Part shown: piece by piece, positions 38,437-45,022 of the stretch
How the letters are laid out: each line of letters starts with the position of its first letter
Numbering within the stretch: position 1 is the stretch's first letter
Assembly: GCF_000027125.1 (NCBI RefSeq)
Contig: NC_017626.1
Source: Escherichia coli 042
GTDB lineage: Bacteria > Pseudomonadota > Gammaproteobacteria > Enterobacterales > Enterobacteriaceae
Length of the DNA: 64,000 nucleotides
Strand: one strand, 5' to 3'
Program-made: the position numbers and the translations under genes
The notes under the pieces: generated by a model
Databases searched by the model: none
What the model was told of the DNA's origin: nothing
Seen by the model: the letters and a program-made list of their open reading frames with translations, nothing else

Positions 38437-39386
<950 letters not shown>

Positions 39387-39412
<26 letters not shown>

Positions 39413-40115
39413 GATGCCAGCGCAGCAAGTTTGCCATCGCAAAGATATATTTTTCGCTGGCTTCGTCGGAGGAGATGGGCGGAAACTCTGCGGTGATGCA
39501 ATGCAGGTTGAGATCCGCACACCAACTACCGAAAGAGCCAGGCGTTTCATAACCGACGCTGGTTACCAGAGGCAATTCAAACGCCTGGGCCAGCCATTCA
39601 CCTAATTCGCTGTGTCTGGGATCTTCAATACAGGCCAGCGGATCGTGGAATGAGACCACCCAGGCAGGTTGAATGCGGTGTATAAGCTGGCACAGCGCCT
39701 GGGTTTCAGGTTCGGAGCCAGGTTTGTCACCTGTCAGCAATACGACATCACGTTCTTCAGCGGCGCTGTTCCAGCGATAAACGGTTTCACCTTCCTTCCA
39801 GTTCGCCGCCGGAAAGTTTCTGTTTAAATCCACACCATTAGCATTGGCCCGTAACCCCAACTGGCAGCCGTCAGGATTCACACACAGCACCACATGATGA
39901 CGGCGCAAAGAAGGTGTCAACGTCCGCAGAGCACAGGAGAGCGTGACGACCGAAGAGTTTTCATCACCGTGAGTGCCAGCCAGAATCAAACCACTTTCGC
40001 GGCTGGCTGCAGGGGCAGGAAACCAGATTAACGGCGCGCCCAATAATGAACGTCCGTAATGTTCTGTTCCGGGCGGAAATGCGCCGCGTTCGGCGCGTGG
40101 GCGAGTTACGGTCAT
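39387..40115 (-). CDS. mpaA: Murein peptide amidase A (zinc carboxypeptidase family)
   Basis: 242 aa from MTVTRPRAERGAFPPG...; convergent with ycjG and overlapping its 3' end. Confidence 0.88.
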
Positions 40116-40405
40116 GATCGTCTCTGGTTCAGGAAGTATTACAGGCAGTGTTGTGCAAATTTTGCGGATTATCAAATCCTTTTCTTCAACGCTATGTCAT
40201 CGATCTTGTATCACTTTTTTGCCGGAAGTTGTTTGCATTTTCATTGATGTGCAGATATTAGAATTGTCGTAATGTTATATACATGGCGTATTTTATTCTT
40301 ACTGGTTCTACACATGTTAATCGCATCTGATTGATCAGTTCACCTTAATAAGTTTAATAAATCGTACTGCACATAGTACAGTACGATGGTAGCTATATAA
40401 TTGAT

Positions 40406-41044
40406 TTACATGAAGAATGGCTTATCGCCATCAGTCCCGGGTTGATTGATGCCTATATTCTCACCAATGTGTTTCTCAGGTTTATCGATGATATCTGTAA
40501 TTAATGCTGCGACACTCTTACGTGATACGATCGTACCTTTGAATGGTTCATTGCGTGAGGTAAGCTCATAATCAATAATATCTTCATCAGTCAGCCAGGC
40601 AGGGCGAAGAATTGTATATTCCAGTCCAGAAGCCTCAATTGCATCCGCAGCCCTGCGGAATGGTTTTAGGGGCTCACCAATAACTGCATTATTCCATTCG
40701 CCAAATTTTCCTGGAACTTCATCATAAATACCGAGGGAAAGAACAAAGATCAGACGTTTAACATCACAGGCTTTCATCGCAGCGATCACTGAATTTGCCT
40801 GAATATCTAAATCTTCCCCCGTAAGGTTGGCATACACAACATCCTGTCCCTGCATGGCCTGCTTCAGTGCTGCATGATTCAGTACATCCCCCATAATAAT
40901 CTTGCTATTAGTTGGATAGGGTTTGTGGATTTTTGCTGGCTGACGGGCAAATAAAGTTTGTTTAATGGTTTGTTTATCTGCCAGTTGATTAATCACATGG
41001 CGGGCTATCTGACCGCCAGCACCAAGAATCAGTACATTTTTCAT
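40406..41044 (-). CDS. ymjC: NAD(P)-binding (NmrA/SDR-like) protein, apparently intact
   Basis: 212-aa ORF with N-terminal Rossmann motif (ILGAGGQIARHV); assigned by position between mpaA and ycjY. Confidence 0.7.
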   Translation of the reverse strand: MKNVLILGAGGQIARHVINQLADKQTIKQTLFARQPAKIHKPYPTNSKIIMGDVLNHAALKQAMQGQDVVYANLTGEDLDIQANSVIAAMKACDVKRLIFVLSLGIYDEVPGKFGEWNNAVIGEPLKPFRRAADAIEASGLEYTILRPAWLTDEDIIDYELTSRNEPFKGTIVSRKSVAALITDIIDKPEKHIGENIGINQPGTDGDKPFFM

Positions 41045-41114
41045 GAAACTTTTCCCAGATTATTGGCAGCAATATGCCAGGCCATATCACTATTACGGAT
41101 TTGAATATGTTTCA

Positions 41115-42047
41115 TTACAGAGTTTCCTCAAAGAACGGCGCTAATACTGAAATTGCTTCAGCCACATAGACTTTGCCGTCATAAAGAACCATATGGTTTG
41201 CGCCTTCAACAATGTGATAGCGTTTATCCTGGCTTGATGCTCGATCGTACAGGTCGTCACTCATCCATTTGCTCCCTGCCTGGCTGCCCGCCACAATCTG
41301 TATCGGCTGAGTCAGGTACACTTCCGCCATATGGTAAGCATCATAGGTAATAATCTGGTTAAGGCTGCGCAAAGTAGCGTAACCCGGTGCTGTTGGATAC
41401 TGCGCGCGAGGGGTGTGGTAATACTCCCAGGCCTGACGCAGTTCTTCGTTCGGCGCATCGGACTCCTTCATTGGTGCCAGTGGCATGGTGGCGTATTCTC
41501 CGCTGCTAATATCGCTGGTTCGGGCGTTTGAACCCGCGTCAACGTATGGTAGGGCATCAATAGATTTCACATTGTTTTCCCAACCATTACGGAACATCGA
41601 ACCAATATTGACCGCACTAACAGTACCGATGGCCTTGATGCGGCGATCCTGAATTGCAGCATTGGCTGTATATCCTGCACCGGCACAAATTCCCATCGCA
41701 CCAATTCGGCTATTGTCGACATAAGAAAGCGTTGTCAGATAATCAATCACGGCACTGACGTCTTCAGTACGAATGTATGGGTTTTCTAACTGACGCGGCT
41801 CGCCGCCGCTTTCACCTTGATAAGATGCGTCATAAGCAATAGTGACAAATCCCTTTTCCGCCAGTTTTTCGGCATAGGTTCCAGCCGTTTGCTCTTTAAC
41901 GCCCCCACCTGGGTGAGATACCACAATTGCCGGATACTGACGGGTTTCATCAAATTTTGGAGGGAAATAGATCACTGCAGACAAAGAGATGGTTGGATTA
42001 TTGCTGTTAGTGAAGCTGACTTTATTATTCATCATTCCGTTCCTCAT
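41115..42047 (-). CDS. ycjY: Alpha/beta hydrolase
   Basis: 310-aa ORF (true start may be a few codons downstream); nucleophile-elbow-like GICAGAG. Confidence 0.85.
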   Translation of the reverse strand: MRNGMMNNKVSFTNSNNPTISLSAVIYFPPKFDETRQYPAIVVSHPGGGVKEQTAGTYAEKLAEKGFVTIAYDASYQGESGGEPRQLENPYIRTEDVSAVIDYLTTLSYVDNSRIGAMGICAGAGYTANAAIQDRRIKAIGTVSAVNIGSMFRNGWENNVKSIDALPYVDAGSNARTSDISSGEYATMPLAPMKESDAPNEELRQAWEYYHTPRAQYPTAPGYATLRSLNQIITYDAYHMAEVYLTQPIQIVAGSQAGSKWMSDDLYDRASSQDKRYHIVEGANHMVLYDGKVYVAEAISVLAPFFEETL

Positions 42048-42172
42048 GGAGTTGTCGGTTCGTTTTAACGGTTGGTGATATCACTATAGATATTGATCAT
42101 TAAGTTGATTAGACCCAAAATCATGATTAGACCTATCATTTAAATGATTAATAGATTGTATGGAGATACTGA

Positions 42173-43072
42173 ATGAAGCGTGAAGAAATCGCTGATCTGA
42201 TGGCGTTTGTCGTCGTTGCAGAGGAGCGTAGCTTCACTCGCGCAGCAGCCCGCCTGAGCATGGCGCAGTCAGCTTTAAGCCAGATAGTGCGCCGTATAGA
42301 AGAACGATTGGGATTGCGGCTTCTGACACGAACCACGCGCAGCGTTGTACCCACTGAAGCGGGCGAGCATCTTTTGTCTGTTCTTGGCCCTATGTTGCAT
42401 GACATAGATTCTGCCCTGACATCCCTGAGCGATCTGCAGAACCGCCCATCCGGGACAATACGTATTACTACTGTAGAACATGCAGCAAAAACGATATTGT
42501 TACCAGCTATGCGCACATTCCTGAAATCGCATCCTGAAATTGATATCCAGCTTACCATTGATTATGGTTTGACCGATGTCGTTTCTGAACGTTTTGATGC
42601 AGGCGTCCGTCTGGGTGGGGAGATGGATAAAGATATGATCGCCATTCGAATCGGGCCAGATATACCAATGGCTATTGTTGGCTCACCGGATTATTTTTCT
42701 CGTCGAAGTGCTCCAACGTCAGTGTCACAATTAATAGATCATCAGGCAATTAATTTGTATCTTCCCACATCGGGTACAGCAAATCGCTGGAGATTAATAC
42801 GCGGTGGACGTGAAGTTCGTGTTCGCATGGAAGGTCAGCTTTTACTGAATACGATAGACCTGATCATTGATGCTGCAATTGATGGGCATGGATTGGCGTA
42901 TCTACCTTATGATCAGGTTGAGCGGGCTATTAAAGAAAAAAAACTGATACGTGTTTTGGATAAATTCACACCAGATTTACCCGGTTATCACCTGTACTAT
43001 CCACACCGTCGACATGCTGGCTCGGCATTCTCATTATTTATAGATAGGCTGAAGTATAAAGGTGCTGTTTAG
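42173..43072 (+). CDS. pgrR: LysR-type regulator PgrR (YcjZ)
   Basis: 299 aa; LysR HTH (FTRAAARLSMAQSALSQIVRRIE), divergent from ycjY. Confidence 0.9.
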   Translation: MKREEIADLMAFVVVAEERSFTRAAARLSMAQSALSQIVRRIEERLGLRLLTRTTRSVVPTEAGEHLLSVLGPMLHDIDSALTSLSDLQNRPSGTIRITTVEHAAKTILLPAMRTFLKSHPEIDIQLTIDYGLTDVVSERFDAGVRLGGEMDKDMIAIRIGPDIPMAIVGSPDYFSRRSAPTSVSQLIDHQAINLYLPTSGTANRWRLIRGGREVRVRMEGQLLLNTIDLIIDAAIDGHGLAYLPYDQVERAIKEKKLIRVLDKFTPDLPGYHLYYPHRRHAGSAFSLFIDRLKYKGAV

Positions 43073-43408
43073 CACTACTTGCTGATACATTAATTTAATT
43101 CTTCTCTTAACGTATTCTCAGTTCCTTTCAACGTTTTGGTCATTTTTTATTCTTCGTACAATGGCGACAGATGCTGATTATGATACCGAAAACGGGTTTG
43201 AACGTGCGAAGCCCGAACGTAGTGTTCGGAGTTCTATGTGCTTTACCGCATTTTGGAGACTATTATTTACACTAAATCTGATTTGATATATTGATACTTA
43301 AAACATTTGATGCTTCCTTTGTCACTTTTTTGATGGAAGTTGTTTGCATTTCTTTAAGGCGAAACAAATAATTACGCATCAATTTTAATGTCGGTTAGAG
43401 GGAAACTT

Positions 43409-45022
43409 ATGAAGCACTCTGTTTCAGTCACGTGTTGTGCGCTGTTGGTCAGCAGCATTTCTCTTTCGTATGCTGCAGAAGTTCCGAGCGGCACAGTACT
43501 GGCAGAGAAGCAGGAGCTGGTGCGCCACATTAAAGATGAGCCTGCGTCGCTGGATCCCGCTAAAGCCGTGGGCCTGCCAGAGATTCAGGTCATTCGCGAT
43601 CTGTTTGAAGGACTGGTGAATCAGAACGAGAAAGGGGAGATTGTCCCCGGCGTTGCGACTCAGTGGAAAAGTAATGACAACCGTATCTGGACATTTACCT
43701 TGCGCGATAACGCAAAATGGGCGGATGGCACACCGGTAACGGCGCAAGATTTTGTCTACAGCTGGCAACGTCTGGTGGCCCCAAAAACATTGTCGCCATT
43801 TGCATGGTTTGCCGCGCTGGCGGGAATCAACAACGCACAGGCGATTATTGATGGTAAAGCCACGCCTGACCAGCTTGGCGTCACCGCAGTTGATGCCCAT
43901 ACTTTGAAAATCCAGCTTGATAAACCGTTGCCGTGGTTTGTGAATTTAACCGCTAACTTTGCCTTCTTCCCGGTGCAAAAAGCCAACGTAGAAAGTAGTA
44001 AAGAGTGGACGAAACCCGGAAAACTGATCGGTAATGGCGCTTATGTTCTTAAAGAGCGCGTAGTCAATGAAAAACTGGTCGTGGTACCGAATACCCATTA
44101 TTGGGATAACGCCAAAACGGTGCTGCAAAAAGTGACCTTCCTGCCAATTAATCAGGAATCCGCAGCCACTAAGCGTTATCTCGCGGGGGATATTGATATC
44201 ACCGAATCCTTCCCGAAAAATATGTATCAGAAGCTGTTGAAGGATATTCCGGGGCAGGTTTATACGCCGCCGCAGCTCGGGACCTATTATTATGCGTTTA
44301 ACACGCAAAAAGGGCCGACGGCCGATCAGCGTGTTCGCCTGGCATTAAGTATGACGATAGATCGCCGCCTGATGACCGAAAAAGTGTTGGGGACGGGGGA
44401 AAAGCCAGCGTGGCATTTTACACCAGATGTTACTGCCGGTTTTACGCCGGAGCCTTCGCCGTTTGAACAAATGAGTCAGGAAGAACTGAATGCGCAGGCA
44501 AAAACTTTGTTGAGCGCAGCTGGTTATGGTCCGCAAAAACCGCTGAAGCTGACGCTTTTGTATAACACTTCAGAAAACCATCAAAAAATTGCGATTGCTG
44601 TAGCATCGATGTGGAAAAAGAACCTTGGCGTAGATGTTAAATTGCAGAATCAGGAATGGAAAACCTATATCGATAGCCGTAACACCGGCAATTTTGATGT
44701 TATCCGCGCCTCATGGGTAGGGGATTATAATGAACCCTCCACTTTCCTTACGTTGTTAACGTCAACGCATTCAGGGAATATTTCACGCTTTAACAATCCG
44801 GCATACGACAAAGTACTGGCCCAGGCATCAACGGAAAATACCGTTAAAGCGCGTAATGCCGATTACAATGCGGCAGAAAAAATCCTCATGGAGCAAGCAC
44901 CGATTGCACCAATTTATCAATATACCAATGGACGATTAATCAAGCCGTGGCTGAGAGGTTATCCCATTAATAACCCGGAAGATGTGGCGTACAGTCGGAC
45001 TATGTATATTGTGAAGCATTGA
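43409..45022 (+). CDS. mppA: Periplasmic murein tripeptide-binding protein
   Basis: 537 aa from MKHSVSVTCCALLVSSISLSYA; OppA-like family 5 SBP. Confidence 0.92.
   Translation: MKHSVSVTCCALLVSSISLSYAAEVPSGTVLAEKQELVRHIKDEPASLDPAKAVGLPEIQVIRDLFEGLVNQNEKGEIVPGVATQWKSNDNRIWTFTLRDNAKWADGTPVTAQDFVYSWQRLVAPKTLSPFAWFAALAGINNAQAIIDGKATPDQLGVTAVDAHTLKIQLDKPLPWFVNLTANFAFFPVQKANVESSKEWTKPGKLIGNGAYVLKERVVNEKLVVVPNTHYWDNAKTVLQKVTFLPINQESAATKRYLAGDIDITESFPKNMYQKLLKDIPGQVYTPPQLGTYYYAFNTQKGPTADQRVRLALSMTIDRRLMTEKVLGTGEKPAWHFTPDVTAGFTPEPSPFEQMSQEELNAQAKTLLSAAGYGPQKPLKLTLLYNTSENHQKIAIAVASMWKKNLGVDVKLQNQEWKTYIDSRNTGNFDVIRASWVGDYNEPSTFLTLLTSTHSGNISRFNNPAYDKVLAQASTENTVKARNADYNAAEKILMEQAPIAPIYQYTNGRLIKPWLRGYPINNPEDVAYSRTMYIVKH

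Follow-up and report, generated by a model that had tools for sequence, protein, structure and literature searches.

Intact ymjC of Escherichia coli 042 as the probable last gene of an imported pgrR-ycjY-hyd1-ymjC cassette that is decaying in E. coli

INTRODUCTION

Is ymjC, a short fragment in the K-12 reference strain, an intact gene elsewhere in Escherichia coli and, if so, to which system does it belong? We addressed this question in E. coli 042, using a 64,000-nucleotide stretch of contig NC_017626.1 (the window). In this window, ymjC lies in the tyrR-tpx-ycjG-mpaA ... mppA region of the E. coli chromosome. The gene has already been recorded as a variable "putative oxidoreductase" in pan-genome work (PMC9602453). 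From sequence comparisons, we consider it likely that the open reading frame (ORF) is an intact, expressible ymjC that stands last in an imported cassette, in which pgrR is divergent from ycjY-hyd1-ymjC, and that this cassette is decaying in E. coli.

RESULTS

YmjC of strain 042 is a full-length, atypical SDR

The gene under study is as follows:

40406..41044, minus strand: ymjC, full-length orthologue encoding a 212-aa NAD(P)H-binding atypical SDR (ATG start, ORF, Pfam and PDB matches)

The original prediction, made from the DNA letters alone, of an intact 212-aa frame at this position was borne out. The frame opens with an ATG, and in a Pfam search residues 8 to 189 of its product matched positions 1 to 184 of the 184-position NAD_binding_10 profile (PF13460; E = 3e-54, 184.1 bits against a gathering cutoff of 27.2 bits). 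The protein had been described as NmrA/SDR-like with an N-terminal Rossmann motif, a description that fits the motif fully and the NmrA family only in part. A glycine-rich dinucleotide-binding motif, G8-A-G-G-Q-I-A14, occupies the N terminus, and in it G8, A9, G11, I13, and A14 reach a conservation of 95% or more among 81 homologues. NmrA (PF05368) scored above its cutoff (41.8 bits), but the match joined residues 2 to 100 of the 212-aa YmjC to profile positions 3 to 104 of 298; it covers the N-terminal Rossmann part only and not the whole ~300-residue profile. The Pfam profiles Epimerase and 3Beta_HSD likewise matched the N-terminal Rossmann part only.

YmjC keeps every residue with 95% or higher conservation in the 81-member family alignment, and the conserved features of the family include R34, a D-x-V-Y-A-N-L strand, a G-x-Y-x-E-V-x-G-K-F-G-E-W-N-N block, and R-P-x-W-L. 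Since none of the five tyrosines of YmjC (residues 42, 71, 107, 143, and 159) has a lysine at +4, the Tyr-x-x-x-Lys motif is missing, and YmjC is an atypical rather than a classical SDR. Its fold can be considered solved already, given that it is identical over its full length to the structural genomics entry PDB 3QVO ("NmrA family protein") at 209 of 212 residues (98.6%). We regard YmjC as a putative NAD(P)H-binding atypical short-chain reductase of ~23 kDa, and the conserved Arg34, which follows strand beta-2, suggests NADPH as the cofactor. The identical protein is encoded on at least 1000 public contigs, where it is named "SDR family oxidoreductase [Escherichia coli]." The dN/dS ratio was 0.14 between the window allele and the allele of O157-type strains (type A below), a value that derives from only nine differences (six synonymous and three nonsynonymous), and 0.04 between the window allele and the Pseudocitrobacter orthologue. 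These ratios indicate that ymjC, which is intact in 042, has been under purifying selection.

A 664-bp deletion accounts for the ymjC fragment of K-12

Alignment with the ymjC/ymjD region of K-12, which had been proposed as a way to find the lesion in the reference, mapped that lesion to the nucleotide. K-12 and the window are 97.9 to 98.5% identical on both flanks of a single gap:

40241/2-40904/5, no strand: segment missing in K-12, 664 bp (alignment to K-12; 1 nt of microhomology)

The deletion took ymjC codons 47 to 212, the hairpin downstream of the gene, and the rest of the cassette DNA as far as the left repeat (see below). In the RefSeq record of K-12 MG1655, ymjC (b4525) encodes 60 aa, compared to 212 aa in the window, and ymjD (b4673) encodes 21 aa. 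Residues 1 to 46 of K-12 YmjC are those of the window protein, and the last 14 residues come from ancestral intergenic DNA; both the 60-aa length and the 14 foreign residues are explained by the 664-bp deletion. An intact reference gene of the same length would have spoken against the original prediction, and K-12 does not have one. Judged by its position and by the collinear DNA on both sides of the deletion, the window gene is the orthologue of K-12 ymjC. The original prediction had taken the K-12 locus to be annotated as a pseudogene fragment. It is indeed a fragment, produced by the 664-bp deletion, but the current RefSeq MG1655 record carries ymjC as a 60-aa coding sequence (CDS) and not as a pseudogene; PGAP labels the same fragment an incomplete pseudogene in other genomes.

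Strain 042 has itself lost hyd1

Strain FORC_044 and strains of O157:H7, O111, and O145 have, between ycjY and the SDR gene, another alpha/beta hydrolase gene, hyd1, whose product has 309 aa. The window has a short remnant in this position:

41041..41115, minus strand: ymjD-like remnant ORF, 24 codons (MKHIQIRNSDMAWHIAANNLGKVS) (junction read against the type A strain FORC_044)

This ORF consists of the first 18 hyd1 codons joined in frame to the last hyd1 codons, and the deletion between them is ~0.88 kb and in frame. A further 12 bp are missing from the window immediately before the SDR start relative to type A. Read from this junction, 042 is itself a deletion derivative in which hyd1 has been lost. 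The remaining frames overlap, the ycjY stop and ymjD start in TAATG and the ymjD stop and SDR start in ATGA. K-12 ymjD is a remnant of the same hyd1 deletion, although it has 21 codons compared to 24 in the window because TAA changed to AAA. Since the same ymjD junction was found in every K-12-type genome sampled, the order of events runs from type A to the window type to the K-12 type. Recombination between the tandem paralogous hydrolase genes was considered as the cause of the hyd1 loss and rejected: the genes are only ~40% identical, and the in-frame deletion stays within hyd1, with ends that offer no useful homology.

Together with ycjY, ymjC had been described as an AT-richer two-gene unit. 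The composition is as described (42.9% GC for ymjC and 48.6% for ycjY, compared to 54.7% for mpaA and 50.4% for the whole window), but the unit is a pgrR-ycjY-hyd1-SDR cassette from which hyd1 has already gone in 042.

Intact ymjC is the majority state in E. coli

We surveyed 5426 complete E. coli genomes, scoring the SDR body as present when at least 80% of the segment deleted in K-12 was found. By this measure, 2900 genomes (~53%) have the SDR body; hyd1 is present in 1272, which leaves ~1630 genomes of the window type (2900 minus 1272). The K-12 deletion junction was found in 2293 genomes, and the site is empty in 174, with mpaA and mppA directly adjacent. The remaining ~60 genomes carry other lesions, examples of which are an IS2 insertion, an IS1-associated loss, a 567-bp and a 1216-bp deletion together, and a large deletion. 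In E. coli, the SDR gene has been damaged independently at least five times. The repeated SDR lesions and the loss of hyd1 suggest weak or conditional selection.

In the window-type genomes sampled, the gene is annotated as an intact CDS. YmjC homologues in other taxa are full length (208 to 216 aa), which implies that an intact ymjC is the ancestral form. The suggestion that 042 may have kept the ancestral gene thus survives as far as ancestry is concerned, but it has little strain-specific meaning: intact ymjC is the majority, ordinary state, and the polymorphism is already known and annotated. The polymorphism itself is minor, a common presence or absence of an accessory gene whose product has a structure in the PDB. 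More is learned from how the cassette is built and has decayed in steps. The finding also calls for caution with K-12 as a reference, since K-12 has the most degraded of the four locus states.

The cassette is inserted between mpaA and mppA

The cassette and its boundaries in the window comprise the following features:

40211..40240, no strand: left direct repeat, 30 bp, TCACTTTTTTGCCGGAAGTTGTTTGCATTT (ancestral mpaA-mppA intergenic sequence)

40241..43321, no strand: inserted cassette DNA between the repeats (comparison with the empty-site strains IMT16316 and HS-02 and with outgroup genera)

41115..42035, minus strand: ycjY, 306-aa alpha/beta hydrolase (counted from the K-12 start) whose nucleophile is the Cys of G-I-C-A-G (Pfam; PDB 5XB6)

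42110..42139, plus strand: promoter-like site of pgrR, TAGACC-18-TATCAT (promoter scan)

42173..43072, plus strand: pgrR, LysR-type regulator, divergent from ycjY and in the same cassette (Pfam HTH_1 and LysR_substrate)

43322..43351, no strand: right direct repeat, 28/30 identical, with GAT for GCC (repeat comparison)

In the empty-site strains IMT16316 and HS-02, mpaA and mppA are divergent neighbors ~180 bp apart, and in Citrobacter, Pseudocitrobacter faecalis, and Klebsiella oxytoca the two genes are likewise directly divergent without the cassette. Empty-site E. coli and Citrobacter have a single clear copy of the repeat, and Pseudocitrobacter and Klebsiella oxytoca have a more diverged counterpart. 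These comparisons show that the pgrR-ycjY-hyd1-SDR cassette entered the ancestral intergenic region between mpaA and mppA and duplicated a 30-bp target there. The insert plus the right repeat (40241-43351) measures 3111 bp with 43.8% GC and is ~0.88 kb longer in type A.

The hexamers of the pgrR promoter-like site are identical to those of the constitutive pgrR promoter reported for K-12 (PMC3946193). Promoter and terminator scans found site numbers not above those of shuffled sequences and no site between ycjY and ymjC, and they were neutral on a separate mpaA promoter. The ycjY frame is open as far as 42047.

An IS does not usually duplicate a target as long as this 30-bp repeat. A longer repeat, extended by a diverged donor flank, was rejected since 120 of 500 shuffles scored equally well. 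The cassette splits the ~180-bp mpaA-mppA control region into two parts (40116-40240 and 43352-43408). The insertion point lies inside sequence conserved across genera, directly upstream of the conserved block AAACAAATAAT, which may be the mppA -10 element, and the duplication leaves the upstream block adjoining mppA. Between the pgrR stop codon and the right repeat lie 250 bp with a 41-codon ORF (43161-43286, plus strand) whose status as a gene is unsupported; the Klebsiella plasmid copies of the cassette do not share this DNA.

A conserved hairpin follows ymjC

The original prediction of a hairpin after ymjC was confirmed:

40361..40387, minus strand: stem-loop with a 12-pair stem and a 3-nt loop, followed by UUAUUAAACUUAUU (18 nt past the ymjC stop)

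The arms ATCGTACTG/CAGTACGAT lengthen into the 12-pair stem, in which 5 of the 12 pairs are G-C. The 71-nt stretch with the hairpin has a minimum free energy of -17.2 kcal/mol (z = -3.0), a stability equaled in 2 of 200 shuffles. Its tail, UUAUUAAA, contains 4 U in 8. The hairpin at 40361-40387 went uncalled in the terminator scan because the T run is one short. A hairpin in this position is also present in type A E. coli, on two Klebsiella plasmids, and on one Pseudocitrobacter contig. Across these copies, 2 of 10 pairs are altered on both sides (compensatory changes); the tail in the Klebsiella copies is not U-rich. The hairpin is probably the 3' end of the operon, acting as a terminator or stabilizer.

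The canonical spacing of a LexA box is N10. The hairpin was considered as a LexA box and rejected, since its spacing is CTG-N9-CAG and since the stem but not the sequence is conserved in Klebsiella and Pseudocitrobacter. An Rfam scan of 39000-44000 returned a single subthreshold chance match, inside pgrR.

Expression of ymjC in 042 would begin at a PgrR-controlled ycjY promoter, and translation of ycjY, ymjD, and ymjC could be coupled through their overlapping stop and start codons. The transcript would end at, or be stabilized by, the hairpin, which would separate the cassette from mpaA in this strain.

The same gene set occurs across proteobacteria and on Klebsiella plasmids

We scanned one genome per species and then searched for neighboring genes with tblastn, which gave 80 listed loci, with no Escherichia among them. 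A LysR gene divergent from ycjY-hyd1-SDR was found in Pseudocitrobacter, Afipia, Mesorhizobium, Hyphomicrobium, Stenotrophomonas, Paraburkholderia, Caballeronia, and Achromobacter, and a LysR gene divergent from SDR-hyd1 was found in Paracoccus, Rhizobium, Shinella, and Pseudochrobactrum. The LysR-hydrolase-hydrolase-SDR order is kept across alpha-, beta-, and gammaproteobacteria. PgrR orthologues with 71 to 87% identity occupy the same divergent position in Pseudocitrobacter, Afipia, Mesorhizobium, and Hyphomicrobium; the Pseudocitrobacter proteins are 87% (PgrR), 93% (YcjY), 86% (Hyd1), and 83% (SDR) identical to those of E. coli. Bacteroidota have the SDR gene with a single hydrolase gene of either type, many beside an AraC-family regulator gene, and Lactobacillaceae have the SDR gene alone. 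Recurrent neighbors in other taxa include genes for Old Yellow Enzyme, flavodoxin-like reductases, and classical SDRs. No homologue of mpaA, ycjG, or mppA was found near the 80 related loci listed, which include 29 cassette-bearing loci.

Conjugative IncF plasmids from K. pneumoniae and K. aerogenes also carry the whole cassette, and the two contexts are unrelated:

Locus L099, 4092-7639: Klebsiella plasmid cassette, complete LysR / two-hydrolase / SDR

Locus L100, 4091-7639: Klebsiella plasmid cassette, complete LysR / two-hydrolase / SDR

One context is beside an IS110-family transposase gene, and the other is between betT and a galactonate-catabolism cluster; homologues of mpaA, ycjG, and mppA were absent beside both. 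The plasmid cassettes share ~79% nucleotide identity with E. coli over 3.56 to 3.63 kb, from the pgrR stop codon to 10 to 70 bp past the SDR stop codon, so that the divergent LysR gene is within the shared DNA.

The cassette hydrolases resemble dienelactone hydrolases

All 42 YcjY/Hyd1-type proteins compared, namely, YcjY (41115-42035), Hyd1 (locus L002, 3866-4795), and 40 homologues encoded beside SDR genes, have Cys in the nucleophile elbow (G-x-C-x-G) and share a conserved His. The Pfam DLH profile matched YcjY and Hyd1 above its cutoff (E = 1.9e-9 and 8.9e-9, respectively) over the N-terminal half of the profile only. Dienelactone hydrolase also uses Cys rather than Ser as its nucleophile, and by the Cys elbow and the DLH match YcjY and Hyd1 appear to be of the dienelactone hydrolase type, with lactone hydrolysis as their putative activity. 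An NCBIfam search with the three cassette enzymes gave no equivalog at cutoff, the best match being the UilS lactonase model at 83 versus 400 bits.

LysR-controlled lactone-catabolic modules of the clc/tfd type combine dienelactone hydrolase with maleylacetate reductase. The cassette shares with them a divergent LysR gene, Cys-nucleophile hydrolases that match DLH, and a following NAD(P)H-dependent reductase. However, the cassette reductase belongs to NAD_binding_10, whereas the maleylacetate reductase of clc/tfd modules belongs to the iron-type alcohol dehydrogenase family, and unlike those modules the cassette has no dioxygenase or cycloisomerase genes; the comparison is a working analogy and not a claim of membership. 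In our working model, the hydrolases might open a lactone or ester while YmjC reduces an oxo, enone, quinone, or electrophile group with NADPH, before or after that step and under the control of the LysR regulator, a chemistry that we offer as one plausible option rather than as the expected one.

Among solved structures, the closest homologue after 3QVO is a structural genomics protein of Veillonella parvula, "NAD-dependent epimerase/dehydratase" (3R6D, 4HNG, 4HNH, and 4IPT; E = 1.6e-19), which aligns with YmjC end to end, including a C-terminal G-x-P-G-T-x-x-D-K-P motif, although far below the identity level of 3QVO. BLVRB (PDB 1HDO) and ChuY/ShuY (5GUY and 5FFQ) have the NAD_binding_10 architecture and a size similar to that of YmjC but are distant from it (E = 4.5e-6 to 2.5e-5). 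BLVRB is of the biliverdin-IX-beta/flavin reductase type, and both BLVRB and ChuY are listed as reductases or as relatives of these. The gene contexts differ, being heme utilization for ChuY and hydrolases for YmjC.

DISCUSSION

The locus can be read as the product of one gain and two successive losses. The cassette inserted between mpaA and mppA with duplication of a 30-bp target, and type A has all three enzyme genes. The ~0.88-kb in-frame deletion within hyd1 then produced the window type, leaving ymjD, and the 664-bp deletion the K-12 type, with 46 ymjC codons kept and the hairpin gone. With hyd1 gone, 042 would at best have a shortened pathway, and the substrate of the cassette is best sought in type A strains (O157:H7) or with the Klebsiella plasmids.

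The loss of hyd1 also allows ymjC of 042 to be seen as an open but functionless relic of a broken pathway, awaiting inactivation as in K-12. The SDR gene has, after all, been destroyed repeatedly and independently, by the K-12 deletion, the 567-bp deletion, IS2, IS1-associated loss, and a large deletion, and the whole cassette is absent from 174 genomes. We nevertheless think a relic unlikely, since the ~1630 window-type genomes keep the gene body, annotated as an intact CDS in those sampled, every conserved residue is retained, and comparison of the type A allele with the window allele gives a low dN/dS, albeit from few differences; moreover, the pairing of the SDR with one hydrolase in Bacteroidota implies that such a pair can be a working unit. 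If ymjC is functional, its product could in principle act, without catalysis, as an NmrA-like sensor of NAD(P)(H) through which PgrR or another regulator is modulated. The missing YxxxK motif, the name of the 3QVO entry, and the above-cutoff Pfam NmrA match would all fit such a role, but that match is limited to the Rossmann part (residues 2 to 100), and the most conserved block of the family, G-x-Y-x-E-V-x-G-K-F-G-E-W-N-N, is in the substrate-side half. The strongest conserved partner is a hydrolase rather than a regulator, with AraC in place of LysR in Bacteroidota and a lone gene in Lactobacillaceae, and the small proteins of the same fold, BLVRB and ChuY, are listed as reductases or as relatives of reductases. 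A sensor thus seems quite improbable, and a reductase encoded by an intact gene remains our preferred reading.

A third proposal, that YmjC and YcjY take part in murein tripeptide recycling with MpaA, YcjG, and MppA, draws on the location of the genes, which adjoin mpaA and mppA, and on the literature. In PMC5934670, the K-12 unit is described as a ycjY-ymjDC-mpaA operon under PgrR, a regulator of peptidoglycan recycling; overexpression of ycjY causes filamentation (PMC3614548); and YcjY has been labeled "putative peptidoglycan degradation" (PMC12711010). The unit had likewise been placed next to the peptidoglycan recycling genes in the original prediction, and the adjacency is real, but what adjoins those genes is an inserted cassette that is not part of their system. 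That the cassette is an insertion into an otherwise conserved intergenic region counts against a recycling role, as does the lack of an mpaA, ycjG, or mppA homologue near the 29 cassette-bearing loci elsewhere or the Klebsiella plasmid copies. In addition, the Cys-nucleophile hydrolases match the dienelactone hydrolase family and not a known peptidoglycan hydrolase family. We consider this proposal very improbable, and we return to that of an imported cassette with its own function.

The K-12 deletion took the hairpin and 165 bp of cassette DNA between ymjC and the ancestral mpaA upstream region, and control of mpaA by PgrR may be a peculiarity of K-12 and its lineage. A broader reading would make PgrR the dedicated regulator of an imported cassette that detoxifies lactones or electrophiles, with no native role in regulating peptidoglycan recycling, attribute the K-12 ycjY-ymjDC-mpaA operon to the 664-bp deletion, which would have fused the shortened, hairpin-less operon to the ancestral mpaA upstream region, and have mpaA otherwise largely insulated. 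Taken as a whole, this reading is tentative and, in our judgment, doubtful. If it were true, mpaA would be largely insulated from PgrR in strains with intact ymjC and hairpin. The K-12-derived regulon name "peptidoglycan recycling regulator PgrR" and the labels given to YcjY may reflect a lineage-specific deletion rather than the biology of the cassette.

The positions of two deletions are also of interest. The K-12 deletion begins 0 to 1 nt from the cassette insertion junction (40240|40241). In strain DETEC-P881 (L088), a different deletion extends as far as the hairpin foot (40388/9). The junction and the hairpin foot may be preferred breakpoints, and the start of the K-12 deletion at the junction hints at site-specific or structure-directed breakage at the cassette end.
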